Source: an uncultured Acidimicrobiales bacterium
GTDB lineage: Bacteria; Actinomycetota; Acidimicrobiia; Acidimicrobiales; SZUA-35
Reading direction: 5' to 3'
Length of the DNA: 64,000 nucleotides
Assembly (NCBI GenBank): GCA_937930695.1
Contig: CALHCB010000055.1
Span: 4,833 to 68,832, forward strand
The notes below the pieces were generated by a model. That model did no database searches and was not told the DNA's origin. It worked only from the letters and a program-made list of their open reading frames with translations. This document shows positions 9,369 to 28,176 of this stretch, piece by piece; position 1 is the stretch's first letter; every line of letters begins with the position of its first letter. The translations under genes and the position numbers were made by a program.

Positions 9369-10081
9369 CCAACTCCCTCATCATCCAGGAAATCTGGCGA
9401 TTCCCCGTCAAGTCCGTGGGCGGCGAGCAGCTCCGCTCTGCTGCGGTGACCGAGTTTGGTATTGCTGGTGACCGGGGTTGGGGCATCTTCGATGTCGAGA
9501 CTGGCACGGTGCTCACGGCCCGCCGCAGCCCCGAGCTTCTGTTTGCCCAGGCGAAACTTCAATCAGACGGCGGGGTGCTTGTGACACTTCCTGACGGAAC
9601 CGAAACGGCCGACGATGCAGCACTGTCTGCATGGCTGGACCGCTCAGTCGAGCTCCGTCGAGCGGGCGACGAAGGCGGCACCTATGAGGTTCCGCTTGAC
9701 TTCGAGAACGATGAGAACTGGGTTTCGTGGCAGGGCCCGGCAGGGGCATGGCACGACTCAGCCCGATCCCGTCTCTCTCTTATTACGCAGAGCTCCCTGC
9801 GGGACTGGGACCATCTGCGTTTCCGTACCAACCTGATCCTGAGTGGTTCAGGGGAGGACGAGTTGGTCGGATCAACCATCTCAGTCGGCGAGGATGTTGA
9901 GCTCGAGGTAACCAAGCAGATCGACCGTTGTGTGATGGTCACTCGTCCTCAGCCCGGATTGGAGCGAGACCTCGACGTGCTTCGGACCATCAACAAGGAG
10001 CGAGAGTCGTTGCTGGCGATCGGTGCGACCGTGGCCGCCAGCGGCACAATTTCTGAGGGTGACGTCGTCGCTGCCACCTGA
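9365..10081 (+). CDS. MOSC domain-containing protein
   Basis: IWRFPVKS, GDR, RFRTN, RCVMVT. Confidence 0.9.
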   Translation: MTNSLIIQEIWRFPVKSVGGEQLRSAAVTEFGIAGDRGWGIFDVETGTVLTARRSPELLFAQAKLQSDGGVLVTLPDGTETADDAALSAWLDRSVELRRAGDEGGTYEVPLDFENDENWVSWQGPAGAWHDSARSRLSLITQSSLRDWDHLRFRTNLILSGSGEDELVGSTISVGEDVELEVTKQIDRCVMVTRPQPGLERDLDVLRTINKERESLLAIGATVAASGTISEGDVVAAT

Positions 10082-10086
10082 GTGGG

Positions 10087-11052
10087 TCAATCGACCAGCA
10101 CGTCATCACGATCTCTGTCGAGCTCACGCTGCCCCTCGGCGCATGAATCGAGGATCGGGCAGAAGCGACACATGCCACTTGCCTGCTTCGTCGGCTCCCG
10201 CTTTTGGACTGTCAGCTCCACATATTTGGCAACGGCATCGACAACTCGTTTGGCCGTGGACCACAACATGTCTTCGGTGACCGCCTCGGAGCGAGGCTCG
10301 CCAGCGTCGAGGTAGTAGCTCACCAATAGGCGAGGCGGAACGCCAAGTTTGAGGGTCTCCAGCAGGGCGTAGAAACGCAGGTCGCTGGTGTGGCTCCCGT
10401 GAGGGCGTCCGGTCTTCAGATCGATGAGGACCCGGCCCGCTTCGTTGCCCCGAGGACGACCCAAGGTGAGATCGACCACTCCGCGCAGCGAAATTCTGTC
10501 GTCGCAGAACTCCGCTCTGACTCGCGACTCAGCGACCGGCACCCATGTGCGTTGAAGCGGAGGAAAGGTCTCGAAGAAGTTCGCCACGAGATCGTTCACT
10601 TGTCCAACGAGATCGGCTCGTTCGCCTTCGGTGAGTTGTTGGATGAACGGACTGATGCTCTTGTCGTCGTTTTCGAGCCTTGCCATCGCGTCGTTGACGA
10701 GATCAAGCGGTGTTGGGTTGCCACGTCGCGCCACCATGAGCTCGATGGCCTTGTGGGCGACTGTGCCCCTGGCGATGGGGATCTTCCACTCGAACTCAGC
10801 TTCTTCTTCCGCCAGGAACCGGCTTTCGCATCCGTGAATCATGCTGATCTTGTGCTTTGACATGAACAGCGGGGTTTCCTCTACATCCTCCAGCAGGGGT
10901 TCGAGCGAAGTGTTCAGTTCATGCCGCAGGTGATCGCGGAGGTCGTCGCGAAAGGAGGGTCGATCGGTCGTTCCGAGCTCGTCGAGAATCTGTTGTTGAG
11001 CAGGGTTGAGACGAGGCTTCGACGGGACGGCGTTTGCTGGTTGGTCGGTCAT
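10087..11052 (-). CDS. PD-(D/E)XK nuclease family protein (RecB/AddB/Cas4-like)
   Basis: RGTVAH, E...GVVD...IDLKTG..LRFY, one N-terminal Cys plus C-terminal CRFC-x5-C; ATG at 11052 overlaps the upstream stop. Confidence 0.85.
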   Translation of the reverse strand: MTDQPANAVPSKPRLNPAQQQILDELGTTDRPSFRDDLRDHLRHELNTSLEPLLEDVEETPLFMSKHKISMIHGCESRFLAEEEAEFEWKIPIARGTVAHKAIELMVARRGNPTPLDLVNDAMARLENDDKSISPFIQQLTEGERADLVGQVNDLVANFFETFPPLQRTWVPVAESRVRAEFCDDRISLRGVVDLTLGRPRGNEAGRVLIDLKTGRPHGSHTSDLRFYALLETLKLGVPPRLLVSYYLDAGEPRSEAVTEDMLWSTAKRVVDAVAKYVELTVQKREPTKQASGMCRFCPILDSCAEGQRELDRDRDDVLVD

Positions 11053-11792
11053 GTTGCTTGACGATCTGCTGCTTGGTCGACCAACCAGGAGAAGAGGGGG
11101 TCGTGGCTTCCGTTGGGCATGCGCTCGGGGTGCCACTGGACCGCAATCAGCGCGTGCTCGACATGCTCGACGACCTCAACCACTCCGTCCGCGGTACGGC
11201 CGGTAACGGTGAGCCCGTCGCCGAGCTGATCAACGGCCTGATGATGGAGCGAGTTCGCCTCGGTTGTGTTGCTGCCAAAGATCTTGGCGATCGACGACCC
11301 GGACTCGAATTGGACGAGATGGCGTCGGGCCAGCATTTCCTCTGCATTGTGAACCGGATCCGGTCCGGTCTCGCGACCTCGATGTTCAACGCTGGTGTCC
11401 CACATGTGCTGGTGGAGTGAGCCGCCAAGCGCAACATTGATGAGCTGGATTCCGCGACAGACACCCAACACGGGGATCCCGATCTCGAGGGCGGCCTGCA
11501 AGAGGTGCTGATCGCTCTCATCTGCCGCTGGGTTCGTCGACACCGCCCCTGCCGCTGAGGCCGAGTACTGGGCAGGGTCGATGTCGTCGCCGCCGCTCAG
11601 CAGCAGGGCATCGAAGCGCTGGAGGGTCTCTCGGGCGCCAGCCTCGTCAACGAAGCCGACGAGGGCTCCGATTCCACCGGCTCGCTCGATCCCGTCGAGG
11701 TACTCAGGATCGATCGTGTACAGATCGTTCTCGGGATGCACGAATGTGGGGAGCGAACGGCGCCAAGGTGTGACGGCAACAAGGGGCTTCAC
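11049..11792 (-). CDS. Gamma-glutamyl-gamma-aminobutyrate hydrolase-like (peptidase C26, class I glutamine amidotransferase)
   Basis: LSGGDDIDP, GVCRGIQ, NSLHHQAV, VQWHPE. Confidence 0.9.
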   Translation of the reverse strand: MKPLVAVTPWRRSLPTFVHPENDLYTIDPEYLDGIERAGGIGALVGFVDEAGARETLQRFDALLLSGGDDIDPAQYSASAAGAVSTNPAADESDQHLLQAALEIGIPVLGVCRGIQLINVALGGSLHQHMWDTSVEHRGRETGPDPVHNAEEMLARRHLVQFESGSSIAKIFGSNTTEANSLHHQAVDQLGDGLTVTGRTADGVVEVVEHVEHALIAVQWHPERMPNGSHDPLFSWLVDQAADRQAT

Positions 11793-16717: not shown

Positions 16718-17500
16718 TCAACGCTCGTTCGCCAGCAACCACTCGTGCATGACGTCGGCAACGAGACGCCAATTTGGGTCGAGCATGACATCGTGGGCGA
16801 TGGGAACCATTCGAGCGGTCGTTCCGTATGCCGCTGCTGTCTTGGCAACTTGGGCTGGAGAGATGATCGCATCTCGTTCTGCGCCGATAACCAGCATCGG
16901 TGTGCGAACTGCCGATGGTTTCGGAAGATTGAGGCCCAACATGTCAACGAACGCTCGAAACGATTCGTCGCCGAGTCGATCGTGGTGTCGTTGCACATCG
17001 ACGTCGCTCAGCTCATCAGAGAAGAAGTGGCGACGGACGAGTTCGGGCGTCTCGACGAGGGGATAGAGCGAAAGGGTCGCGTTGGAGCGGGCGAATTGCT
17101 TCGGATACTGGCGAGCGATCCGCAGTGACGTCGGCCAGACGCCAGATGGCGGAACCGAGGCGAGAAGAGCGCCACCCGGAAGGTGGTGATCTTCCAGGTA
17201 ATGCTGGACGAGGAACCCACCCATCGAGTGGCCGATCAATACCGGTTCGGACGGTTGGGACTGCACTACGCCATCGATGTCATCGAGATAGTCCTTGGTC
17301 GAAGTCCATCGCAAACGATCGGTGCCGTGACTGCCCCCGTGGCCCCGGAGACTGACAGCGGTGGCCGAATAGCCGAGTGTCGCAAAGTGGTCGAGCATGT
17401 GCTCTTCCCAGCACCAGGCTCCGTGCCAGGCTCCGTGTACGAATACGAGCGGAGTGCGGTGCTGGGGCTCGGCGGGAGTGCGAGAGACGATTTCGAGCAT
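16718..17500 (-). CDS. Alpha/beta hydrolase
   Basis: VHGAWHGAWCW, GHSMGG, D and AHD catalytic motifs. Confidence 0.9.
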   Translation of the reverse strand: MLEIVSRTPAEPQHRTPLVFVHGAWHGAWCWEEHMLDHFATLGYSATAVSLRGHGGSHGTDRLRWTSTKDYLDDIDGVVQSQPSEPVLIGHSMGGFLVQHYLEDHHLPGGALLASVPPSGVWPTSLRIARQYPKQFARSNATLSLYPLVETPELVRRHFFSDELSDVDVQRHHDRLGDESFRAFVDMLGLNLPKPSAVRTPMLVIGAERDAIISPAQVAKTAAAYGTTARMVPIAHDVMLDPNWRLVADVMHEWLLANER

Positions 17501-17543
17501 GATCGAGATCGTACGGGCCAGCGTCACCACCTACGATCAGCCG

Positions 17544-19097
17544 ATGGCTGACGACATCACGTTCTATGACGACATCGAGGGCTATTGCGGTCGATTGAGT
17601 GTCGTGGCGGGGGGTGAGGTCGTGCTCCACGTGTCGACGAAGTCTCCCCAGTTCGACGTGGTCGTTGAGCGATGGGGGGCGACTCGTGAGATGGTCTGGT
17701 CTGAGACGGGATTCGATGGCGTGTTCACGCCGCCTCCTGCCGATGCCGATGCGCACGGGTGTCATTGGCCAGAAAGCGTCACCGTTCCTGTCGGCGACGA
17801 CTGGGAATCGGGCTTCTACCTCGTGACGTTGAGGGCCTCAGAAGCCGCCGAAGGGCGAGACGTCGCGCATGCCGGATTCGTCGTCCGTCCTGCCGAACGT
17901 CGACAACGAGCCCTACTCGTCCTCGCAACGAACACCTGGAATGCCTACAACACCTGGGGAGGCGCCAGTCTCTACACGGGAGGCAAAGAAGTGTCGTTCC
18001 GTCGGCCTTTCGGTCGTGGATTCCTGTGCCGCGATGAGGTCGAACGAGATGATCGGAAGGCTCGGCCGTTCCGTTGGGGCGAGGAACCGGATCCCGACGG
18101 TGAGATCTATCAGGCATACCGATTCGAGCAGGGCTATCCAGGGTTTATCGGCTCTTCGGGCTGGTTTACCTTTGAGCGTCGGTTCGTCGAGTGGGCCGAG
18201 CAAGAGGGAGTGCACTTCGACTTCGCCATCTCTTCGGACTTGGAAGACGTTCCCGATCTTTGCGACGGGTATGACCTCGTGCTCGGCGTTGGCCACGACG
18301 AGTACTGGTCAGGTCCCCAGCGCGACGCAGTCGAGCGACACGTCGAGAACGGCGGAAACTACGCCAGCTTCTCCGGCAACACGATGTTCTGGCAGGTTCG
18401 CTTGGCTGAGGGTGGAGGCGATGCCGCCGGAACCATGATCTGTCATAAGTATTCAGCACACGAAACCGATCCGATCATGGCCGAATCGCCGACGGGGATG
18501 ACCGGGATGTGGGCCGACCCGGTTGTCGGCCGGCCGGAGACCTCTTTTCTGGGCGGAGGGTCCGCGTACGGTCTGTACTACCGATTTGGGCAAGCCATCG
18601 CTCGCGGGTCCGGGGCCTTCACGGTCTACCGCGACGATCACTGGCTCCTTGCGGGTACGGGACTGCGCTACGGCGATCTCCTTGGCGCAACTGATGGAGT
18701 TGTCGGGTATGAGACGCTCGGTTGCCGTATCCAGTTCGATGAGTATCAATTGCCGATTCGAGCCGGCGGAGACAACACACCCGAAGATTTGGAGATCGTG
18801 GCCTTCACGCCCGCTTCGAATCTTGGAGTCGGTGAATACCCGAAGTCGATCTCTGCCCTCAACGATCAAGGCGACATGGAGTTCGTTGCTGAACGGCTCT
18901 ATGGGAGCGTGAATGAGGATGCGATCCGTCGAGTCCGGCACGGGAACGCCGTGATGGTTGTTGCCCGACCGTTCGGGCCGGCCGGGGGAGAGGTCGTCAA
19001 CATCGGAACCACTGATTGGACGTTCGGGCTCTCGGGAGATCCAGCAGTCTCCCGAGTAACAAAGAATGTGATCGCCCGGTATCTCGAAGTCAGTTGA
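17544..19097 (+). CDS. N,N-dimethylformamidase beta (large) subunit family protein
   Basis: WESGFY, TNTWNAYNTWGGASLY, VSFRRP, GHDEYWS, FSGN, VGYE, GTTDW. Confidence 0.82.
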   Translation: MADDITFYDDIEGYCGRLSVVAGGEVVLHVSTKSPQFDVVVERWGATREMVWSETGFDGVFTPPPADADAHGCHWPESVTVPVGDDWESGFYLVTLRASEAAEGRDVAHAGFVVRPAERRQRALLVLATNTWNAYNTWGGASLYTGGKEVSFRRPFGRGFLCRDEVERDDRKARPFRWGEEPDPDGEIYQAYRFEQGYPGFIGSSGWFTFERRFVEWAEQEGVHFDFAISSDLEDVPDLCDGYDLVLGVGHDEYWSGPQRDAVERHVENGGNYASFSGNTMFWQVRLAEGGGDAAGTMICHKYSAHETDPIMAESPTGMTGMWADPVVGRPETSFLGGGSAYGLYYRFGQAIARGSGAFTVYRDDHWLLAGTGLRYGDLLGATDGVVGYETLGCRIQFDEYQLPIRAGGDNTPEDLEIVAFTPASNLGVGEYPKSISALNDQGDMEFVAERLYGSVNEDAIRRVRHGNAVMVVARPFGPAGGEVVNIGTTDWTFGLSGDPAVSRVTKNVIARYLEVS

Positions 19098-20861: not shown

Positions 20862-21854
20862 CTAGAAGGACGCTCGTGTTCTCGGGTCGGCCCATCGGTA
20901 GACCAGTTCGCTGAGACCGCGAATGACCACGATGATGGCGGTGACGTAGGCCGTGATGGCAGCAAGAACATGGAGATCTCTGTTGATCGAGGCCTCTTCG
21001 AGAACGATGCCCATCCCTCCGATGCCGAACATTTGCTCCACGATGATGACGCCGCTGAGCAGCGATCCGAAGATGAGTCCGAGCTGGGTCAGAAGTGTCA
21101 TGGATGCTGGTCGCAGGGCGTGACGCACGATCACCTGACGTCGAGGTAGTCCTTTGGCCTGAGCAGCCAGAATGAACTCCTCGTCGAGCACACTTCGCGT
21201 ACTCGTTGTCACGAGCCTGGCGATGATGCCGGCTTCCGGTAGTGCGATGGCGAGAACAGGCATCAGGGCTCGCTCGAGGTTTCCGCTCACCGAGGTGGAT
21301 AATCGTTCCCAGCCAGCAGCGGGAAGCAGTCCGTATTTGACCGAGATCACCCATGTTGCGACGGCCGCAAGAATAAAGGCCGGGGTGCCCTGGAGCGTGC
21401 TGATTACTGCGGTGTGGGCGAACTTCGACGACGACCGTGAAAGAAGGGCGCCGCTGAATCCCGCAGTGAGTCCGATGACCACCGCGGAACCCAATGCCAG
21501 AATTGCGATCTCGAACGAGATCGGCAGACGAGGCGTGAGCATGGGTTGCACAGGGCGATCGCCGCGACTGGAACGATTGAAGTCGAACTGCGCCGCGTCC
21601 AAGAACCACTTCGCATGGCGGAGAGGAACGGGGTCTTTGAAGTTGTACGCCTCGACCTGCTCGGCGAGACGAGGGTTATCGAGGTCTTCGCCTGCACCGA
21701 GTACAACGGTTGCCATGCCACCGTCGATCGAGATCTCGAGGACGAGGAAGACTGCAAGCGTGCTGAGGTACAACGCCAAGACCAGTCGTCCGAACCATCC
21801 GAGAAGGCCTCGCGCACCGCGAAGGGCTCGGGTCGAAGACGGGCGAGTGATCAC
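20862..21854 (-). CDS. Peptide/nickel ABC transporter permease (DppB/OppB family)
   Basis: EAA loop ILAAQAKGL, RHALRP, SGVIIVEQMFGIGGMG. Confidence 0.88.
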   Translation of the reverse strand: MITRPSSTRALRGARGLLGWFGRLVLALYLSTLAVFLVLEISIDGGMATVVLGAGEDLDNPRLAEQVEAYNFKDPVPLRHAKWFLDAAQFDFNRSSRGDRPVQPMLTPRLPISFEIAILALGSAVVIGLTAGFSGALLSRSSSKFAHTAVISTLQGTPAFILAAVATWVISVKYGLLPAAGWERLSTSVSGNLERALMPVLAIALPEAGIIARLVTTSTRSVLDEEFILAAQAKGLPRRQVIVRHALRPASMTLLTQLGLIFGSLLSGVIIVEQMFGIGGMGIVLEEASINRDLHVLAAITAYVTAIIVVIRGLSELVYRWADPRTRASF

Positions 21855-21872: not shown

Positions 21873-24800
21873 TCAATTCGACTCCTCAGAAATGAGTTCT
21901 GCGTCTTCGGCAAGAAACGTGCGGCGATCGGCAACAGCAAAGATGACGTCGTCGATGTCTCCGACGATTCGGTCCTCGTCGTACAGCGGCTTGGAGAACC
22001 GCATGGCGAGCACCACATCGCGAGACGGGATGTAGACCAGTCGAGCGTCTCCACCGTCGTGGAAGGCATAGAGGAACGGCTCAGGGTCAAGGTCCGATGG
22101 TGGGTCGCAGGGACAGTGGCGCCATGCGCCGAGCCCTGCGTTTCCTTGGTAGGCCTGGCCTCCGAACAGCATCTGGTCTCGCATCTCTGGACTGAGGACG
22201 GTTCCGTCTCGCATCAGCGCCCCATACCAGCGAGCGAGGTCGTCGAGGGTCGACACAACTCCGCCCGAGCCGTGGCCGACGAACCCAGCACGTTGGTTGT
22301 TGACTAGTTCGGTGTTCGTCATGCCGAGCGGCGTGAAGATTCGGTCATCCAGCACTTCGCTCAGCGGTTGGCCAGTTGCCGCCTCGATCGTCAGACCTGC
22401 CATGAGATAGTTGGAGGCGGCGTAGGACGGCACGGTGGAGGACAAGTCGCTTGCTCGCACGCTCATTGCCACGGCATCGAGTGGCGTCAAGATCCCGTCG
22501 GGCCGGAAGTCCGCGGTTTGGCGATAGTCATCCAAACCGGTTGCGTGACTCAATAGACGCCGCAGCGTGAGTCCGTCGGTGACATCTTGAGAGATGCCTT
22601 CCAGAGGTGGCAGCGGTCCGTCGAGCGTGAGCGTCCCTTCGGCGACCAGCTGCAACGCGACGGCGGCCACCATGGTCTTGGTGAGGCTGAGCGCTTCGAA
22701 GGGAGCGGCGGGGTCGAGAGCCTCGGGTGCCCCGAACTGAACGGTGACCGGTCGATCGCCTGTTGGCGCTCCGATCTCTACCACTGCCATGGATTCGACT
22801 CCGTGGCCGATCAACCAAGCCTCTGCGCTGCGCGCCATCGTGGCGAGTTGCTCAGGAGACGGGTCCAGGAGGGCGAGCGTCGATACCTCACCACCCACAG
22901 GGGGACGACCCGAGGGAGTGGGAGGGCCGAGATCGTCAGCAAACTCGGGAAAGAGATTGGCCTGAGGAAGCAGGACCCCAACGGCGACGATGAGTGCGAG
23001 AACAAGCCCGAGCCGCGGCCGCGGTCGTCGACGGTTTCCCGCCATCCACATGGTTTCCAGCGGCCGAACGGCCGCAACGACAACTCGAAGGAGCACGGAG
23101 AACACTGCACCGAAGAGAACCCAATGAGCAGCCGAACGCGGCCCGCCGACGACGCGATAGGCAAACACGAGCGCCAGGGTGTGCCAGAGGTAGATCGACA
23201 TCGCCCACTTGGTTATCCACCCGACGAATCTGCGTATCGTGTCGATCTCGCCGAGGTGGCGGAGGTGGTCCTCGATGGAGAGCAGGGCGCCGAGCCACGC
23301 AAGGCCCACCAGCCCGAACAAGACATAGGAGTTGTTCACGACCATGTCGGTGGGCGGCGAAATGAGTGCCCAGGCAACCGCTCCGGTTCCGAGTGCGACA
23401 ACGAGCTGGAATCTGACCCGACGTGTGAGCTTGTGGCGCAGTTTGTGCCCACTCATGCCGAGGGTGAAGAAGCCGCCGAAGCAAATGATGTCTGCGACGC
23501 CACGAGCGACCGCAGTCGCGTGGGCTGTTGATTGCTGTGCGACCCAACGATCGAGGACGAAGAGCGACAGCGCCCAAGCAGCAAACTGGATCACGCCGGG
23601 AATTCGTCGTCCGATCGGGCGGACCAATGGAGTGAGCACGAGGATGATGACGAGCGCACGGAGGAACCAGAGCGGGGCGGAGAGCCAGCCTGCCTCCCAG
23701 GGGAGCGTTGCCGGTGCCCGATACGGAATCAACCAAGAGATCACGTCGCGTCGTGAGTCTTGCGCAACGTCCGGGACCGCGAGAGCGACGGCCGACAGCG
23801 AGAGCGCGATGTATGCGTAGTACGGCGGGATCAGCCGTTCGAGTCGCCCTTTCACTACCTGCCAACAACCGGTGTTTCGCATGCTCTTGACCATGAGCGC
23901 GCCCGATACATAGAAGACTGCGGGCATGGCGGCAAAGCTCCAAGAGATCCACCAATAGCCGAGCGCGTGCCAGAACATCACACGCACGATCGAGATAGTG
24001 CGAACCATGTCGAGAAAGGCATCTCGTCCTCCCTCGTTGTCCGGGGCGCTCAGCTCGACTGGCTGTTTGGAGATAACCGGGGCGGCGGAGGTTCCGAGCG
24101 CTGCGGGCAAGGCAATGGCAGCCAGGATGCCTACGGGGGCCAGGTCGATGAGCGGCCATCCAGTTGCAACCCGAAAGGTGAGCAGGCCCATGATGACGAG
24201 GAAACCGACGAGGGCGCCGACGGCAATCTGTTCGGGTATTCGATCAGTTCCTTGGCTCGAACTTCGCTCGCGAATCGAGACCTTGCCGCCGGTGGGAATC
24301 CACTCCTGGTCTCGGTCCGTGAGGTGGTCTCGCAACGCGTACAAGTGGGCGACCTGAGAGACCAGACCTACCCGTCGCGATGCACGGCCATCGGGGAGGT
24401 GGAGCCAACGGGGCTGGAGGTAGAACTCAGTGAAGAGCGCCGGCAGGATCATCGCGGCAGGCGCGAGCGTGATCACGTAGGGCGCTTCGGCGAGAGAGAC
24501 CACGGGCACGTAGATGGCGACGAGTGGGCTCAACGCACTGGTCACGTAGAAGATCCACCCGTCCCACATCCCGAGGCGCTGCATCGGGGTCAGCTTCATG
24601 CGTTTGAACAACGGTGTTCCCGCGAGGGCGAAGTTGCCACGAGCCCATCGATATTGCTGTGACGCAAGCGACGCCGCGTTGTCGGGGGCCGTGCCTGCGG
24701 CAAGCGGCAGAGGCAGGTAGTCGACCCGGTATCCAGCATCGATGACCTTGAGCCCGGTGAAGATGTCTTCAGAGTGTTCGAGAAGCGCCATGCCCCCTCG

Positions 24801-25694
24801 TTCCTCGAGGGCTGCTCGTCGATACACGGCGTTTGTTCCGACGCAGATGGCGCCGCCGTGCTTGTCTCGGGCCCGCATGCCGACCCGGTAGAACTGCTCC
24901 TGCTGCGCCGCTGCCCCACGCTCGACCCAATTGTCCGATGTCACTCGGAAGAACTGTGGGGTTTGGAGAATACCGAGCTTCTCGTCGTCGAAGTACGGCA
25001 CGGTGTGGCTGAGGAAGTCGGAGCGAACGGCGAAGTCAGCATCGAGAATGATGATCAGGTCGCCATCGGACTGCTCATAGCCGTGACGGAGATTGCCCGC
25101 CTTCTTCATCCATCCACGGTCTGGCCGCGAGATGTAGGTCGCTCCCCACCGCAGTGCCGCCTGGTGCACCTCGGGCGAGTCGCGGTCGTCCAGAACGTAG
25201 ACGTTCAGCTTCTCTCTGGGATGGTCGAGGTGGAAGGCATGGACGATGGTGTTCTCGACAATGATCGGGTCCTCGCCACACGTGCAGATGAAGACATCAA
25301 CGGTCGGCGTGTTGTGCTCGGAGCGTCGGTTGTTTCGCCAGCGCATATGGCGAGCTCGATCAAATGCAGGGATCTGGGTTGACCAGACAATGTTGATGAA
25401 CCCGCCGATCACGACAGCAAGTGCGAATGGAAGCAGCACGACGAGCCAATTCCCGGTGAACGACAAGAACACCAGCGCCGAGCCGAGGCAGACCCGGGAG
25501 AAGGCGGAGAACTGCAGGAACCGCTTTCCGTCGTTGGCGACGTAGGACCAGAGTTCGTCGTCGTCCGGTGGCGAGATCGTGGCGTGAACCGGAAGCGCGG
25601 GTGTTGCTTCGTCGGCCTCGGCCGGCACCCCGTTCGTCGGCTCGGAGTCTTCTTCTGGTGCGCGTCGGTGCTCAGTGAGCGTCGAGATCGACAA
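21873..25694 (-). CDS. Three-domain fusion: cellulose-synthase-like GT2, acyltransferase-3 and beta-lactamase-fold serine hydrolase
   Basis: GT2: VLDD, KAGN, DADF, QTPQ, SED, QQYRW (~aa346). AT3: RDAFLDMVR..WH (~aa557), FYVSG, LWFL, SIYLWH. Hydrolase: SLTK (~aa1003), LLSHATG, YAASNY, PLGM, HDG. GAGGAG RBS before TTG. Confidence 0.88.
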   Translation of the reverse strand: MSISTLTEHRRAPEEDSEPTNGVPAEADEATPALPVHATISPPDDDELWSYVANDGKRFLQFSAFSRVCLGSALVFLSFTGNWLVVLLPFALAVVIGGFINIVWSTQIPAFDRARHMRWRNNRRSEHNTPTVDVFICTCGEDPIIVENTIVHAFHLDHPREKLNVYVLDDRDSPEVHQAALRWGATYISRPDRGWMKKAGNLRHGYEQSDGDLIIILDADFAVRSDFLSHTVPYFDDEKLGILQTPQFFRVTSDNWVERGAAAQQEQFYRVGMRARDKHGGAICVGTNAVYRRAALEERGGMALLEHSEDIFTGLKVIDAGYRVDYLPLPLAAGTAPDNAASLASQQYRWARGNFALAGTPLFKRMKLTPMQRLGMWDGWIFYVTSALSPLVAIYVPVVSLAEAPYVITLAPAAMILPALFTEFYLQPRWLHLPDGRASRRVGLVSQVAHLYALRDHLTDRDQEWIPTGGKVSIRERSSSQGTDRIPEQIAVGALVGFLVIMGLLTFRVATGWPLIDLAPVGILAAIALPAALGTSAAPVISKQPVELSAPDNEGGRDAFLDMVRTISIVRVMFWHALGYWWISWSFAAMPAVFYVSGALMVKSMRNTGCWQVVKGRLERLIPPYYAYIALSLSAVALAVPDVAQDSRRDVISWLIPYRAPATLPWEAGWLSAPLWFLRALVIILVLTPLVRPIGRRIPGVIQFAAWALSLFVLDRWVAQQSTAHATAVARGVADIICFGGFFTLGMSGHKLRHKLTRRVRFQLVVALGTGAVAWALISPPTDMVVNNSYVLFGLVGLAWLGALLSIEDHLRHLGEIDTIRRFVGWITKWAMSIYLWHTLALVFAYRVVGGPRSAAHWVLFGAVFSVLLRVVVAAVRPLETMWMAGNRRRPRPRLGLVLALIVAVGVLLPQANLFPEFADDLGPPTPSGRPPVGGEVSTLALLDPSPEQLATMARSAEAWLIGHGVESMAVVEIGAPTGDRPVTVQFGAPEALDPAAPFEALSLTKTMVAAVALQLVAEGTLTLDGPLPPLEGISQDVTDGLTLRRLLSHATGLDDYRQTADFRPDGILTPLDAVAMSVRASDLSSTVPSYAASNYLMAGLTIEAATGQPLSEVLDDRIFTPLGMTNTELVNNQRAGFVGHGSGGVVSTLDDLARWYGALMRDGTVLSPEMRDQMLFGGQAYQGNAGLGAWRHCPCDPPSDLDPEPFLYAFHDGGDARLVYIPSRDVVLAMRFSKPLYDEDRIVGDIDDVIFAVADRRTFLAEDAELISEESN

Positions 25695-25704
25695 GGTGTT
25701 CTCC

Positions 25705-26847
25705 TCAGTGGGCGAGAGCGAGGGCAGCCAGAGGCGCCACTCCGCTCAGCAACATGGCGGTGATGGCGGGATGGGCCATCCGGTTGGTCATGGCGAAGAT
25801 GACGGGATCTCGATGGATGCGCTCAGATTCCGCCGCGTCAGATGTTGGGGTTTCGGGTTCTGACTGCTCAGCGGGGCTCTGTGCTCGGCGTCGGTGTTGG
25901 GAACGAAGGAATGACAGGAGCAAGACAGCCGAGCCCGAGATGGCCAATTCCAGGGTCGGATTTGTCGCAACTTGGGTGACATCGGTCGGGGCGTATTGGT
26001 CGATGGGCGAGGCCAAGATCACGACGTGGTGGGCGACGAGGGCCACGGTGATGGTCAAGGCGAGGTGCAGGAGCGTGCCGGGGGAGACTCGCCATCGATT
26101 GGCGCCGATGCTCAGCACGAACGTGGCGATCACCACGAGAGAGCCTCGATGCAACTCGGCACTGAAGAGGCGCCACGGCTCTTGGTCGATGCTGAAGAAG
26201 GGGATCTGGGCAAGTCGCCGGTAGATGAGTGCCGACGGTTGCTCGAGCGAACTCCTCACGGCGTTGTGGCAGAACTCTGCAACTGGCTGCCAGGTGAGCA
26301 GGCTCATGACGGTGAGGGCCCGCAGCAGCGCCAGTAGTCGGTAGCCCCAAAGGGCGAGGTACGTGCCCAAGAGGGCGACGGACAAGACGGGCCCAGCGAG
26401 AACTGGAGCCAGCGATGGCCACGTAGTGAGCACAATGGTGAGAATCGCAGCGGAGGTCGAGATCACCGCGGCGCTCGTCGAGGTGACTTCGCGGGTTGGG
26501 GTCACGTTCGGGCGAGGCCGCCATCGAAGTGTTCCAACCGCAATGCCGCCGAGCGCCACCAGCGGGACGACGCTTGCGCCATCGTCGTTGTGATTCCATC
26601 CGGACCTCCCGATCGCGACGGCGCCAACAACGCAGACGGCAACGACGACAAGCGCAGTCAACCACGGACGGTGGTCAACTGGTGGAAGTGGCGCTGACGT
26701 CTCCGTGGGGTGTTCAACGGGCGCTCGATGTCCGAGTTTCGAGCCAAAAGGTCGAAAATTTGCTCGGTTCTTCCGAAAATGGGCATTGCGAAGCTGCAGT
26801 TCGGTGGACGGCTGTGCGGGCCGTTCCACCTCAGCGAAGGCGGGCAT
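25705..26847 (-). CDS. Polytopic membrane protein, possibly a degenerate exosortase-like fold
   Basis: About 8-9 hydrophobic helices; stop lies 10 nt before the fusion gene; ATG at 26847 or GTG at 26886. Confidence 0.7.
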   Translation of the reverse strand: MPAFAEVERPAQPSTELQLRNAHFRKNRANFRPFGSKLGHRAPVEHPTETSAPLPPVDHRPWLTALVVVAVCVVGAVAIGRSGWNHNDDGASVVPLVALGGIAVGTLRWRPRPNVTPTREVTSTSAAVISTSAAILTIVLTTWPSLAPVLAGPVLSVALLGTYLALWGYRLLALLRALTVMSLLTWQPVAEFCHNAVRSSLEQPSALIYRRLAQIPFFSIDQEPWRLFSAELHRGSLVVIATFVLSIGANRWRVSPGTLLHLALTITVALVAHHVVILASPIDQYAPTDVTQVATNPTLELAISGSAVLLLSFLRSQHRRRAQSPAEQSEPETPTSDAAESERIHRDPVIFAMTNRMAHPAITAMLLSGVAPLAALALAH

Positions 26848-26887
26848 GTCACGCAGAGTGACATAGGTTGTCGGGGATCGCAACACT

Positions 26888-26911: not shown

Positions 26912-27006
26912 GCTGGTTCCGTCTGGACTAGCCAGCCAGCCCGTTCGGACTACAGGCGATGTGCTTGCTGGCCCAGGGTGCACGTTGGCGAGCTAACGTC
27001 CGCTCC

Positions 27007-28176
27007 ATGGCCAGCGCCCCACAAGCATCAGAGCCTGTCGATCTCGACGCGGTTGCTGAGCGGTGGGCGAGGCACGGATTCTTGCCGCCCGAACTGGCTG
27101 ATCGACAGGGTCGCGTTGAGCTTTATTCGCTCTACGAGAGTCACGGGGTCGAGGCCGCGACGTATGCGGACGTACCGTTTGACGACATCCTCTCGACCAT
27201 CAATCTGGCTGTTCTGGTTCCCGCTCGGACCATCGAATCGACGGAGGCAATGAGGCGATCGGGTCTTGATCCTGAGACGTTCGCCAGGATCACGAAGGCG
27301 CTGGGCATCGCTGATCAGTCGAAGCTCTCCGATCTTGATCTCGAAGCCATTGAAATCTTCAAAACGGGCGTCGAACTCATGTTCAGCGAGGAAGAACTCA
27401 TCGCCTTTACTCGCATCATGAGTGCCTCAATGGACCGAATCGCCGAGGCGGCGACCGCCCTGTTTCGCATCGACGTCGCTTCATCGATGGATGAACGTGG
27501 CGCCTCCGAACTCGAGTACGCCGTGAAGAACCTCCAGTCAGCTGAGATGCTCGAGACGATCTTCATCCCAATTCGATCCGTATTCTCCCATCGGCTCGAA
27601 GCAGCTGTGTCGCGGAGCGACGTCGCTCGAGGCCGGGCGATGGCCGGCCCACAAAGTTCGGTGGCGTTGTCCGTTGGATTCGTTGATCTTGTCGGCTTCA
27701 CCTCGATGTCGGGGGAGATCGAGTTGGACGAGTTGGCCCGATTCGTCTTGGAATTCGAAGCATCAGCTCAAGACATCGTTGGAGATCGCGGCGGGCGGGT
27801 CGTGAAGCTGATCGGCGATGAGGTGATGTTTGTCAACACCGACGTCGATGCGGCAATTGAGACAGCAGCGGCCCTCATCGAGGGAATCGGGTCGTCTTCC
27901 AAAGCGCCGAGAGGTGGCGTCGCAACGGGTGACGTAGTGGCTCGCGGTGGTGACTACTACGGACGAATCGTCAATCTGGCTGCTCGGCTCGTCGACCAGG
28001 CGGTGTCAGGAGAGGTTCTGGTCGACGAAGCAACAGTTGACGGGTGCGAACGGTCGGTGTTTGAACCAGCAGGACGACGGCAGTTGAAGGGCTTCACCGA
28101 TCCAGTCCGGTTGTTCTCGATCGAGGTTGCAGGCGGCGGTGGAGACGACTTCGAGCCCAAATCAGCGGACCGCTAG
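27007..28176 (+). CDS. Class III adenylate/guanylate cyclase with N-terminal regulatory domain (Rv1264/Rv2212-like)
   Basis: GFVDLVGFT, VKLIGDEVMF, DYYGRIVNLAARL, LKGF. Confidence 0.92.
   Translation: MASAPQASEPVDLDAVAERWARHGFLPPELADRQGRVELYSLYESHGVEAATYADVPFDDILSTINLAVLVPARTIESTEAMRRSGLDPETFARITKALGIADQSKLSDLDLEAIEIFKTGVELMFSEEELIAFTRIMSASMDRIAEAATALFRIDVASSMDERGASELEYAVKNLQSAEMLETIFIPIRSVFSHRLEAAVSRSDVARGRAMAGPQSSVALSVGFVDLVGFTSMSGEIELDELARFVLEFEASAQDIVGDRGGRVVKLIGDEVMFVNTDVDAAIETAAALIEGIGSSSKAPRGGVATGDVVARGGDYYGRIVNLAARLVDQAVSGEVLVDEATVDGCERSVFEPAGRRQLKGFTDPVRLFSIEVAGGGGDDFEPKSADR

Follow-up and report, generated by a model that had tools for sequence, protein, structure and literature searches.

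A conserved glycosyltransferase-acyltransferase-beta-lactamase-fold fusion and its upstream membrane partner: a candidate two-gene system for acylated beta-glucans in uncultured Acidimicrobiia

We analysed a stretch of 64,000 nucleotides (nt; hereafter the window) from contig CALHCB010000055.1 of an uncultured Acidimicrobiales bacterium (assembly GCA_937930695.1), whose positions 21873..25694 hold, on the minus strand, a single open reading frame (ORF; P0001) of 1273 codons, the stop codon being included in the coordinates. This frame begins with TTG and runs without interruption in the ORF list of the window, and its product of 1273 amino acids (aa) joins in one chain a processive family 2 glycosyltransferase (GT2) resembling the cellulose synthase BcsA, a membrane acyltransferase-3 (AT3) domain and a beta-lactamase-fold serine enzyme domain of MEROPS type S12. 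The fusion is real, its architecture is conserved and its catalytic residues are intact. Judged by its gene neighbourhoods, it is one half of a two-gene cassette and not a single all-in-one protein, the other half being a membrane protein encoded directly upstream (P0102). The reading that we favour, by a modest margin over its not being so, is that uncultured Acidimicrobiia of sea and soil possess in this cassette a system for an envelope polysaccharide, in which the main protein would polymerise, export and O-acylate a beta-glucan by way of an AT3-to-S12 relay.

All three domain types were recognised by Pfam above the curated cut-offs, with GT2 models at residues 130-413, Acyl_transf_3 (PF01757) at 559-872 and Beta-lactamase (PF00144) at 988-1238. 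The preliminary description of this DNA, which had claimed an uninterrupted 1273-aa triple fusion, was borne out in this respect; all the motifs it had named are present, and the catalytic positions are invariant or nearly so among 42 aligned members. A search of 5.8 billion clustered proteins (clusters at 90% identity; 100 matches returned) found GT2, PF01757 and PF00144 together in 47 clusters beyond the window's own, at 49-83% identity and mostly with 1231-1352 aa, under source names that are automatic only ("serine hydrolase", "cellulose synthase (UDP-forming)"). "Shorter" homologues made of AT3 and S12 at 45-71% identity were considered as an independent form and rejected, as they proved to be fragments or split copies of the fusion family. 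Scanning one genome per species yielded 27 fusion loci (L001-L027), all from metagenome-assembled genomes (MAGs) labelled Acidimicrobiales, Ilumatobacteraceae, Acidimicrobiia, Actinomycetes or Actinomycetota, and one of them (L014) a closed chromosome.

Where the contig spans the gene, 22 of the 24 loci carry it as one uninterrupted ORF, so that homologues are by no means always split into separate genes; the two exceptions show an in-frame stop (L006) and a frameshift (L024), both within a domain and not at a boundary. Coverage across the domain junctions, a check proposed in the preliminary description, was assessed with public sequencing runs, 13 of which carry part of the stretch (marine, macroalgae, coral-reef and seawater metagenomes). 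Contigs of the four best runs (X2-X5; three studies, apart from the possible source; likeness of at least 90%) span both junctions with zero inserted or deleted letters: record 5 of X2 spans 23636-25214, and 22242-23288 is covered by records 3 and 4 of X2, record 18 of X4 and record 27 of X5. That the long ORF might be an assembly chimera, or separate genes read through by way of a sequencing error, finds some ground in the source genome, a MAG of 214 contigs and 86% completeness (in which a second gene copy was not found), in database entries split on a shared contig (P0045+P0107, P0052+P0108 and P0053+P0111), as L006 and L024 also are, and in one contig joint of X2 at 24151-24286, which skips 134 nt, not a multiple of three, with 26 letters on one side, and which likely reflects another organism or an assembly quirk. 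The probability of such an artefact is nevertheless negligible in our estimate, because the frame is open in those 22 loci from many independent assemblies, including the closed chromosome, because contigs from three other studies cross both junctions without indels, because the breaks of L006 and L024 fall within domains, and because synonymous strain variants outnumber non-synonymous ones (40 variants listed, from other runs; 14 synonymous and 5 non-synonymous in the synthase, 15 and 6 in the partner).

The partner gene P0102 (25705..26886, minus strand) encodes, as the longest ORF, a polytopic all-helical membrane protein of 393 aa belonging to an undescribed family. At the junction of the two genes (25692..25708), as read directly from the letters, the stop codon of P0102 lies only 10 nt from the TTG start of the synthase, and a GGAG ribosome-binding site is placed 7 nt 5' of this TTG; a spacer of 10 nt suggests that both genes are co-transcribed and that their translation is coupled. 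No RNA run carrying the stretch was present among the 14 runs listed. The partner is found directly upstream of the synthase in all 26 related loci having upstream DNA, and a hidden Markov model (HMM) of its family matches those 26 loci, none of 52 loci with GT2 only and none of 8 loci with AT3-S12 only. When a sample of 401 genomes of the class was scanned, matches at E <= 1e-94 were confined to the 4 genomes holding the fusion, where they adjoin it; four further matches are short and weak (E 4e-5 to 4e-4). In view of so strict a co-occurrence, the "all-in-one" character attributed to the fusion in the preliminary description was too strong a claim.

The partner is well modelled by AlphaFold2 (AF2; mean predicted local distance difference test, pLDDT, 85.1; predicted template-modelling score, pTM, 0.83), and this model gave no fold match in the PDB at E <= 0.001 (best E 0.13, at a template-modelling score, TM-score, of ~0.15); likewise, none of 23 family members had a significant Pfam match. 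Its invariant residues are Y176, G181, R183, R189, W199, S218, Y222, W238, R239, H286, H287, Y298, R359 and D360. A language-model lead (0.87-0.92) to exosortase (EpsH, PF09721) was rejected, since no Cys is conserved in the 23-24 aligned members and PF09721 matched none of 23. Residues 1-60 (26707-26886), in which two synonymous and one non-synonymous strain variants were seen, are not conserved among orthologues, the conserved core starting from about residue 61 (about nt 26706); the true start is therefore probably further downstream than that of the longest ORF. A complex prediction of the partner with synthase residues 41-560, without the AT3 half, scored 0.29 against a mark of 0.32, which gives no answer either way.

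Turning to the fusion protein itself, all parts of which are encoded on the minus strand, residues 1-108 (25371..25694) comprise an acidic N-terminal tail and two transmembrane (TM) helices (~59-77 and 84-105, from hydropathy, with an AF2 helix at 84-105). They are followed by the predicted cytoplasmic, processive GT2 catalytic domain (residues 109-360; 24615..25370), as assigned by Pfam, BcsA matches and invariant motifs, and by residues 361-556 (24027..24614), which are predicted to hold four TM helices with an amphipathic helix between them and a short cytoplasmic linker. The Pfam models matched were PF13641 (1.2e-20), PF13632, PF00535 and Cellulose_synt PF03552 (3.8e-10). The full set of motifs consists of DD 169-170, KKAGN 197-201, DAD 218-220, QTPQ 244-247, HSED 307-310 and QQYRW 346-350, in which D169 and D170, D218-A-D220, H307-S-E-D310 and Q346-Q-Y-R-W350 are invariant across the 42 aligned sequences. 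The closest solved relatives are the BcsA proteins of E. coli (7lby, 2.5e-34) and R. sphaeroides (4hg6, 3.6e-27), with an alignment that extends from the catalytic domain into the first following membrane helices, to residue 421. The amphipathic helix bears an invariant DQEWIPTGG (462-470), and the order of helices fits TM5-TM6-IF3-TM7-TM8 of BcsA, in a region where the AF2 pLDDT is just 35-60. As had been noted earlier, no PilZ domain is recognisable (no PF07238 match at E <= 0.1 in the synthase), and control by cyclic di-GMP through PilZ is therefore not expected. Among the ten neighbouring ORFs, no match to BcsB was obtained.

The AT3 domain occupies residues 557-881 (23052..24026) and is assigned as a ten-helix acyl-transfer domain by Pfam (PF01757; 1.5e-19, 70.7 bits versus a cut-off of 31) and by AF2 (pLDDT 80-92); no solved structure was retrieved for it by sequence at E <= 0.01. 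The region of its first and second TM helices (TMH1-2) reads HALGYWWISWSFAAMP. Its motifs are an invariant R565-X10-H576, F594-YVS-G598, R617-L-E-R620, YLWH 835-838 and E880 after the tenth helix, this glutamate being conserved not only in the fusions but also in 8 AT3-S12 proteins that stand alone. In OafA, the residues reported as essential are R/K-X10-H in TMH1, FFXISG, RXXR and the Glu after TMH10, the latter being invariant in SGNH-fused AT3 proteins only, which also possess an 11th helix (PMC7448272; here and below, papers are cited for those portions of their text that were accessible). In the window protein, residues 882-960 (22815..23051) contain an Arg-rich, presumably cytoplasmic loop that follows E880 (NRRRPRPR, 887-894; 6 Arg in 20 residues), an 11th TM helix (~895-915; 895-908 in AF2, hydropathy 2.28) and a Pro-rich, presumably extracytoplasmic linker (GPPTPSGRPP, 923-932). 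Here L914, F915, P916, P925, P927, S928, R930 and P931 are invariant among the 42 aligned members, and a PPxPS-like linker is present in stand-alone AT3-S12 proteins too. Since the glycosyltransferase has to be cytoplasmic, and since the chain then passes through the four helices of the synthase, the ten of AT3, the Arg-rich loop (cytoplasmic by the positive-inside rule) and the 11th helix, an extracellular location is predicted for the S12 domain.

This S12 domain, at residues 961-1273 (21876..22814), is supported as a serine enzyme of the beta-lactamase fold by Pfam (PF00144 at 988-1238, 8.3e-32), PDB matches and AF2 (pLDDT 85-96); PF00144 fills the position at which an SGNH domain might be sought, and no Pfam SGNH model (of the PF19040 or PF13472 type) matched in the fusion. 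Its motifs are SLTK 1003-1006, YAASNY 1091-1096, C1194-P-C1196 and HDG 1212-1214, with S1003, K1006 and Y1091 invariant in the fused forms and in the 8 stand-alone forms. By sequence, the best PDB matches were the alkaline D-peptidase of B. cereus (4y7p, 2e-14) and the R61 DD-peptidase of Streptomyces (5.4e-14). By structure, Foldseek returned 355 PDB matches at E <= 0.001 (target TM-score 0.56-0.69), headed, at E ~1e-10, by 3wwx, 2drw, 4y7p and 3pte (D-stereospecific amidohydrolase, D-amino acid amidase, alkaline D-peptidase and R61). Lower in the list stand class C beta-lactamases, together with the cyclase SurE and with EstCE1, the entry of which is titled "a hydrolase with promiscuous acyltransferase activity". 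Identities in these structural alignments are just 15-20%, whichever solved protein is taken. The CPC motif (22107-22115, residues 1194-1196) is situated between a GLGAW strand and the HDG box. It does not vary within the fused family and is shared by 92 of 96 stand-alone AT3-S12 representatives and 23 of 26 listed S12-only proteins; the sole strain variant seen there is synonymous. A redox-active disulfide, a metal site and an acyl carrier are candidate roles for it.

The pairing of AT3 and S12 also exists without the synthase. A search of the class with residues 550-1273 returned, besides the fusions, open frames of ~740-1000 aa with 31-37% identity over both domains, and all 8 such loci fetched encode PF01757 and PF00144 with no GT2 or partner gene within ~7 kb. 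When 1.84 billion cluster representatives (50% identity) were searched exhaustively with HMMER, 128 proteins matched at E <= 1e-30; both domains were present in 96 of 138 newly listed representatives (median 759 aa), always with AT3 first and in no case with GT2, and one of the 96, from the cultured Kineococcus aurantiacus, is annotated merely as "acyltransferase family protein". As the AT3 motifs, E880, SxxK, Tyr and CPC are invariant across fused and stand-alone forms, the sequences indicate that the AT3-S12 pairing is an evolutionary unit in its own right, like AT3-SGNH. In one locus (L088), the stand-alone AT3-S12 gene adjoins a separate PF00144 gene and a PlsC-type acyltransferase gene (PF01553), at 9538-10683 and 10769-11416, both on the minus strand.

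As regards the polymer, the processive GT2 enzymes of the BcsA type do not make cellulose only; CrdS is a synthase of curdlan, and BgsA one of mixed-linkage glucan. In 8 of the 27 loci, forming a subclade of ~54% identity, a GH16 gene lies directly downstream of the synthase, and the best solved relatives of these linked GH16 proteins are endo-beta-1,3-glucanases or laminarinases (6.5e-56 to 1e-37), with 1,3-1,4-lichenases at just ~1e-5. GT2 domains 35-44% identical to that of the window are fused to GH26, PMT_2, GSDH or AT3-SGNH domains; the GH26 domain of P0055 finds its best match in Endoglucanase H of C. thermocellum (2.7e-11; mannanases 4e-5 or weaker), the PDB entries of that name being the lichenase module CtLic26A. 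Because synthase operons usually include a hydrolase for their own product (PMC8892547), this GT2 clade probably makes a polymer with beta-1,3 linkages, of the curdlan or the mixed-linkage kind, and not plain cellulose; for the window protein itself, we place a beta-1,3-containing glucan marginally ahead of a plain beta-1,4 glucan. The earlier designation as a "glucan synthase, BcsA/CslA type" is thus kept as far as the BcsA-like GT2 is concerned, and is not to be read as cellulose, given the laminarinase-type GH16 and the GH26 relatives.

Several other architectures were encountered among these relatives. An actinobacterial GT2 is fused to, or directly followed by, GH26 in P0055, P0065, P0071-P0073, P0076-P0078, P0081 and L028:7592-10513; PMT_2 is fused in P0084 (Rhodococcus) and GSDH in P0085 and P0086, and in L046 a PMT_2 gene is flanked by two such GT2 genes. 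The metagenomic protein P0097 (1123 aa) combines a polysaccharide deacetylase (PF01522), a PgaC/chitin-synthase-like GT2 and AT3 in one chain, resembling a fused IcaB, IcaA and IcaC. Triple fusions of GT2, AT3 and SGNH occur in Actinomycetota (P0063, P0064 and P0083; 1209-1514 aa), one of them (P0063, "SGNH hydrolase domain-containing protein") from a cultured Curtobacterium sp.; they appear uncharacterised, no paper having been found. They share with the window protein the order of domains and a 38%-identical GT2, and differ from it in having an SGNH outer domain and in their AT3 domains, which BLAST does not align with ours; the SGNH-bearing and the S12-bearing triple fusions may therefore have separate origins.

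Compilation of these data suggests the following course of events for the fusion. The GT2 would add sugars processively from a nucleotide sugar, probably uridine diphosphate (UDP)-glucose, as its invariant motifs and homology to BcsA imply, and the glucan chain would be threaded through a channel formed by the six TM helices of the synthase itself. The ten-helix AT3 domain, with its intact motifs, would take an acyl group from cytoplasmic acyl-coenzyme A and move it across the membrane, on the outer face of which the 11th helix and the Pro-rich linker would hold the S12 domain, by analogy with OafA/OafB and OatA. Ser1003, with Lys1006 and Tyr1091, would then receive the acyl group as an acyl-enzyme and pass it to a hydroxyl of the emerging glucan, S12 acting as an O-acyltransferase in the role that SGNH holds elsewhere. 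The upstream membrane protein would be an obligatory partner, perhaps forming part of the export path or of a site that handles the acceptor. The proposal of the preliminary description that an SxxK domain replaces SGNH as the relay is strengthened by four results: (a) a sister GT2-AT3-SGNH fusion exists (P0063, P0083), (b) the AT3 domain of the fusion shows the marks of SGNH-fused AT3 proteins, among them the Glu after TMH10 and, behind the Arg-rich loop, an 11th helix, (c) AT3 plus S12 is widespread as a two-domain protein, and (d) S12 is predicted to be extracellular, a cytoplasmic hydrolase domain having been named at the outset as fatal to the proposal. Acyl transfer by S12, the acyl group and the polymer stay presumptive, drawn from sequence and analogy.

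A number of observations weigh against this reading. The chemical steps, the acyl group, the donor, the acceptor and the linkage are all inferred. NCBIfam cellulose synthase models scored far under their equivalog cut-offs (TIGR03030, 171.8 versus 699.1 bits; PRK11498, 147.8 versus 992), so that the synthase is, on these scores, BcsA-like and not a BcsA orthologue. The window clade has no linked GH16, and its genome has two GH16 genes elsewhere that are 31-35% identical to the linked ones; the beta-1,3 inference accordingly comes from a sister subclade and from more distant GT2 relatives. The GG-F/Y-XGV-D/P/V motif, described at the outer end of TMH2 in SGNH-fused AT3 proteins (PMC7448272), is absent from the fusion. 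In the AF2 model of the whole protein (mean pLDDT 73.5, pTM 0.53), the membrane part of GT2 reaches a pLDDT of only 35-60, and for this reason the packing of the domains and the direction in which the S12 active site faces cannot be read from it. The last two points concern the S12 domain and the stand-alone proteins, and each bears on a different explanation of the AT3-S12 half.

Among solved structures, S12 comes closest to D-stereospecific peptidases and amidases and to a DD-peptidase, and not to esterases or transferases that act on carbohydrates; its active site is atypical, since Y1091, which aligns with the Tyr of Y-S-N in R61, is followed in the fusion by Ala-Ala (Y-A-A, with an invariant N1095 four residues on) and since the HDG box, kept in the fused clade, is not kept in stand-alone AT3-S12 proteins. 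With D-amino acid amidase, D-stereospecific amidohydrolase, alkaline D-peptidase, R61 and AmpC as its nearest solved neighbours, the domain could be a hydrolase, either an esterase outside the cytoplasm, editing or taking off the acyl groups that AT3 would set directly, or an enzyme of the D-peptidase type that opens the wall locally for the glucan; the view that AT3-only proteins transfer acyl groups unaided (PMC9558356) would fit this. We hold it to be improbable, given that a deacylase permanently tethered to the acyltransferase feeding it would be futile, that the fusion has the Glu after TMH10 and the 11th helix, features associated in OafA with passing the acyl group to a fused outer domain, and that SGNH, also a hydrolase fold, is a transferase in the same setting (PMC9558356, PMC7448272).

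The neighbours of the stand-alone AT3-S12 genes are unrelated to glycan synthesis, and the ancestral target of the module may therefore be some other envelope polymer. An explanation built on this would have AT3-S12 act on peptidoglycan or another wall glycopolymer, its fusion to the synthase serving co-localisation only; in a bolder form, S12 would make a DD-peptidase-like acyl-enzyme with a stem peptide, which a glucan hydroxyl would resolve, so that the glucan became covalently anchored to the wall. Stand-alone AT3-S12 proteins are indeed common and do not stand beside GT2 synthases or the partner gene, their automatic name from the Joint Genome Institute includes "peptidoglycan/LPS O-acetylase", and S12 resembles enzymes that bind peptidoglycan peptides, such as R61. 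Set against this, the fusion persists, with an invariant linker, across 47 other clusters (49-83% identity) and 27 loci at species level, which argues for coupling in one pathway. In DD-peptidases and class C enzymes, the Asn of Y-x-N contacts the acyl-amide of the substrate; Ala stands in its place here, and the anchoring form would leave an intact AT3 domain without a role. We therefore rate this explanation, its bolder form included, as unlikely, to the same degree as a hydrolytic S12, and retain O-acylation of the glucan as the preferred reading.

Parts of the proposed system have counterparts in known ones. Like BcsA-type synthases, the fusion has D, D, D and QxxRW, and it finds its best solved matches among them, with a predicted TM helix order after GT2 that may also correspond; unlike them, it has no PilZ, two and not four or more N-terminal helices, no BcsB-like gene seen nearby and two extra C-terminal domains. 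The hydrolases of cellulose systems are of the GH8 BcsZ type, whereas those of the fusion family are laminarinase-type GH16 and GH26. With the AT3-SGNH proteins OafA, OafB, OatA and PglI it shares the ten-helix AT3, R/K-X10-H, an FFXISG-like motif, RXXR, the Glu after TMH10, and an 11th helix and conserved linker bearing an extracytoplasmic serine enzyme domain; it departs from them in that this domain has the S12 fold (SxxK, Tyr and CPC) and theirs is SGNH with Ser-His-Asp, in lacking GG-F/Y-XGV-D, and in joining the module to the synthase of its presumed substrate. A processive GT2 with a membrane AT3 modifying the product outside the cytoplasm is also found in IcaA/IcaC and in BcsA with BcsX/BcsY, and further synthase/AT3 pairs are OpgH/OpgC and NodC with NolL/NodX; such pairs are separate genes without S12, in contrast to one chain plus a new partner. 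For IcaA/IcaC, which make poly-N-acetylglucosamine, O-succinylation has been suggested (PMC12423673). The machineries that acetylate cellulose and alginate, WssFGHI, AlgIJFX and clostridial Ccs, resemble the fusion in O-acylation after synthesis by a membrane acyl carrier and an outer serine transferase, but employ MBOAT and SGNH as separate genes instead of AT3 and S12. With S12 and class C enzymes (R61, alkaline D-peptidase, D-amino acid amidase, EstCE1 and SurE) the outer domain shares the fold and the SxxK and Tyr core, and it differs from them in Y-A-A for Y-x-N with Asn four residues on, in the family-specific CPC and in being membrane-tethered to AT3. Other enzymes of this fold include FmtA, a teichoic acid D-Ala esterase, EstB and the acyltransferase LovD, which uses a non-water nucleophile; according to the titles of PDB entries 7atl and 6ksu, some S12 members resolve the acyl-enzyme with nucleophiles other than water.

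In print, the statement of the preliminary description that no characterised protein has this architecture still holds as far as our search went. A full-text literature search, to which supplements, Pfam/InterPro architecture tables and subscription journals were outside the scope, retrieved no paper on GT2-AT3-S12 or on AT3 with a beta-lactamase domain, the nearest literature being that on AT3-SGNH, Bcs and peptidoglycan O-acetylation. Papers on AT3 cover AT3-only, AT3-SGNH, AT3-racemase (VanT) and eukaryotic fusions, and their accessible portions make no mention of a beta-lactamase-fold or GT2 fusion of AT3 (PMC9558356, PMC12423673, PMC9833829, PMC7448272). A review of Bcs systems attributes cellulose acetylation, in its accessible part, to MBOAT and SGNH sets only, in addition to the uncharacterised BcsX/BcsY (PMC8892547). 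As far as found, therefore, the architecture is visible in databases under automatic names and is undescribed.

The remaining genes of the window near the cassette encode an adenylate cyclase, an ABC permease, a HisA-like protein, an enoyl-CoA hydratase, a DMFase-like protein, an EamA protein, an alpha/beta hydrolase and an AMP-ligase; these were dropped as members of the system, being next to the synthase in just 0-2 of 27 loci. Divergent from the cassette, a class III adenylate/guanylate cyclase with a regulatory domain (26959-28176, plus strand; PF00211, weak PF16701) is kept beside the synthase in none of the 27 loci. A lone ABC permease gene (20862-21854, minus strand; BPD_transp_1) begins, on the same strand, 18 nt past the synthase stop; neither an ATPase gene nor one for a binding protein is visible next to it, and the permease gene is not conserved in related loci. 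At 17397-19097 (plus strand), a 566-aa protein has a C-terminal domain like the beta-subunit of N,N-dimethylformamidase (PF20254, 5.7e-69).

Overall, what is new here is the outer catalytic fold and the partner, and what is known is the logic of AT3-SGNH proteins and of synthase/AT3 pairs. In its widest form, to which we give slightly less than an even chance, the finding would be that AT3 together with a CPC-bearing beta-lactamase-fold domain constitutes an unrecognised, widespread transmembrane acyl relay, with a serine enzyme of the penicillin-binding protein (PBP) type and not an SGNH enzyme serving as the extracytoplasmic O-acyltransferase for envelope glycans, hard-wired in this clade of Acidimicrobiia to a beta-1,3-type glucan synthase and to a partner of a fold unseen in solved structures, as the first single-chain synthase-modifier. 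The described outer partner of AT3 is none or SGNH; if the reading is true, a second, unrelated fold would make AT3 a general acyl source for different serine enzymes, and the beta-lactamase/PBP-fold superfamily would gain a job in glycan modification, raising the question of whether beta-lactams inhibit it. As a Rosetta stone, the fusion suggests what one branch or more of an orphan family, which counts at least 96 clusters, probably acts on, namely a beta-glucan made by a synthase. With just two genes, the cassette would also be a compact means of producing acylated beta-glucans and of studying structurally how synthesis and modification are coupled. Acylation of surface polysaccharides alters solubility, resistance to hydrolases and recognition by phages and hosts, and the cassette points to a surface polymer in the Acidimicrobiia, which are abundant in sea and soil and hardly cultured.

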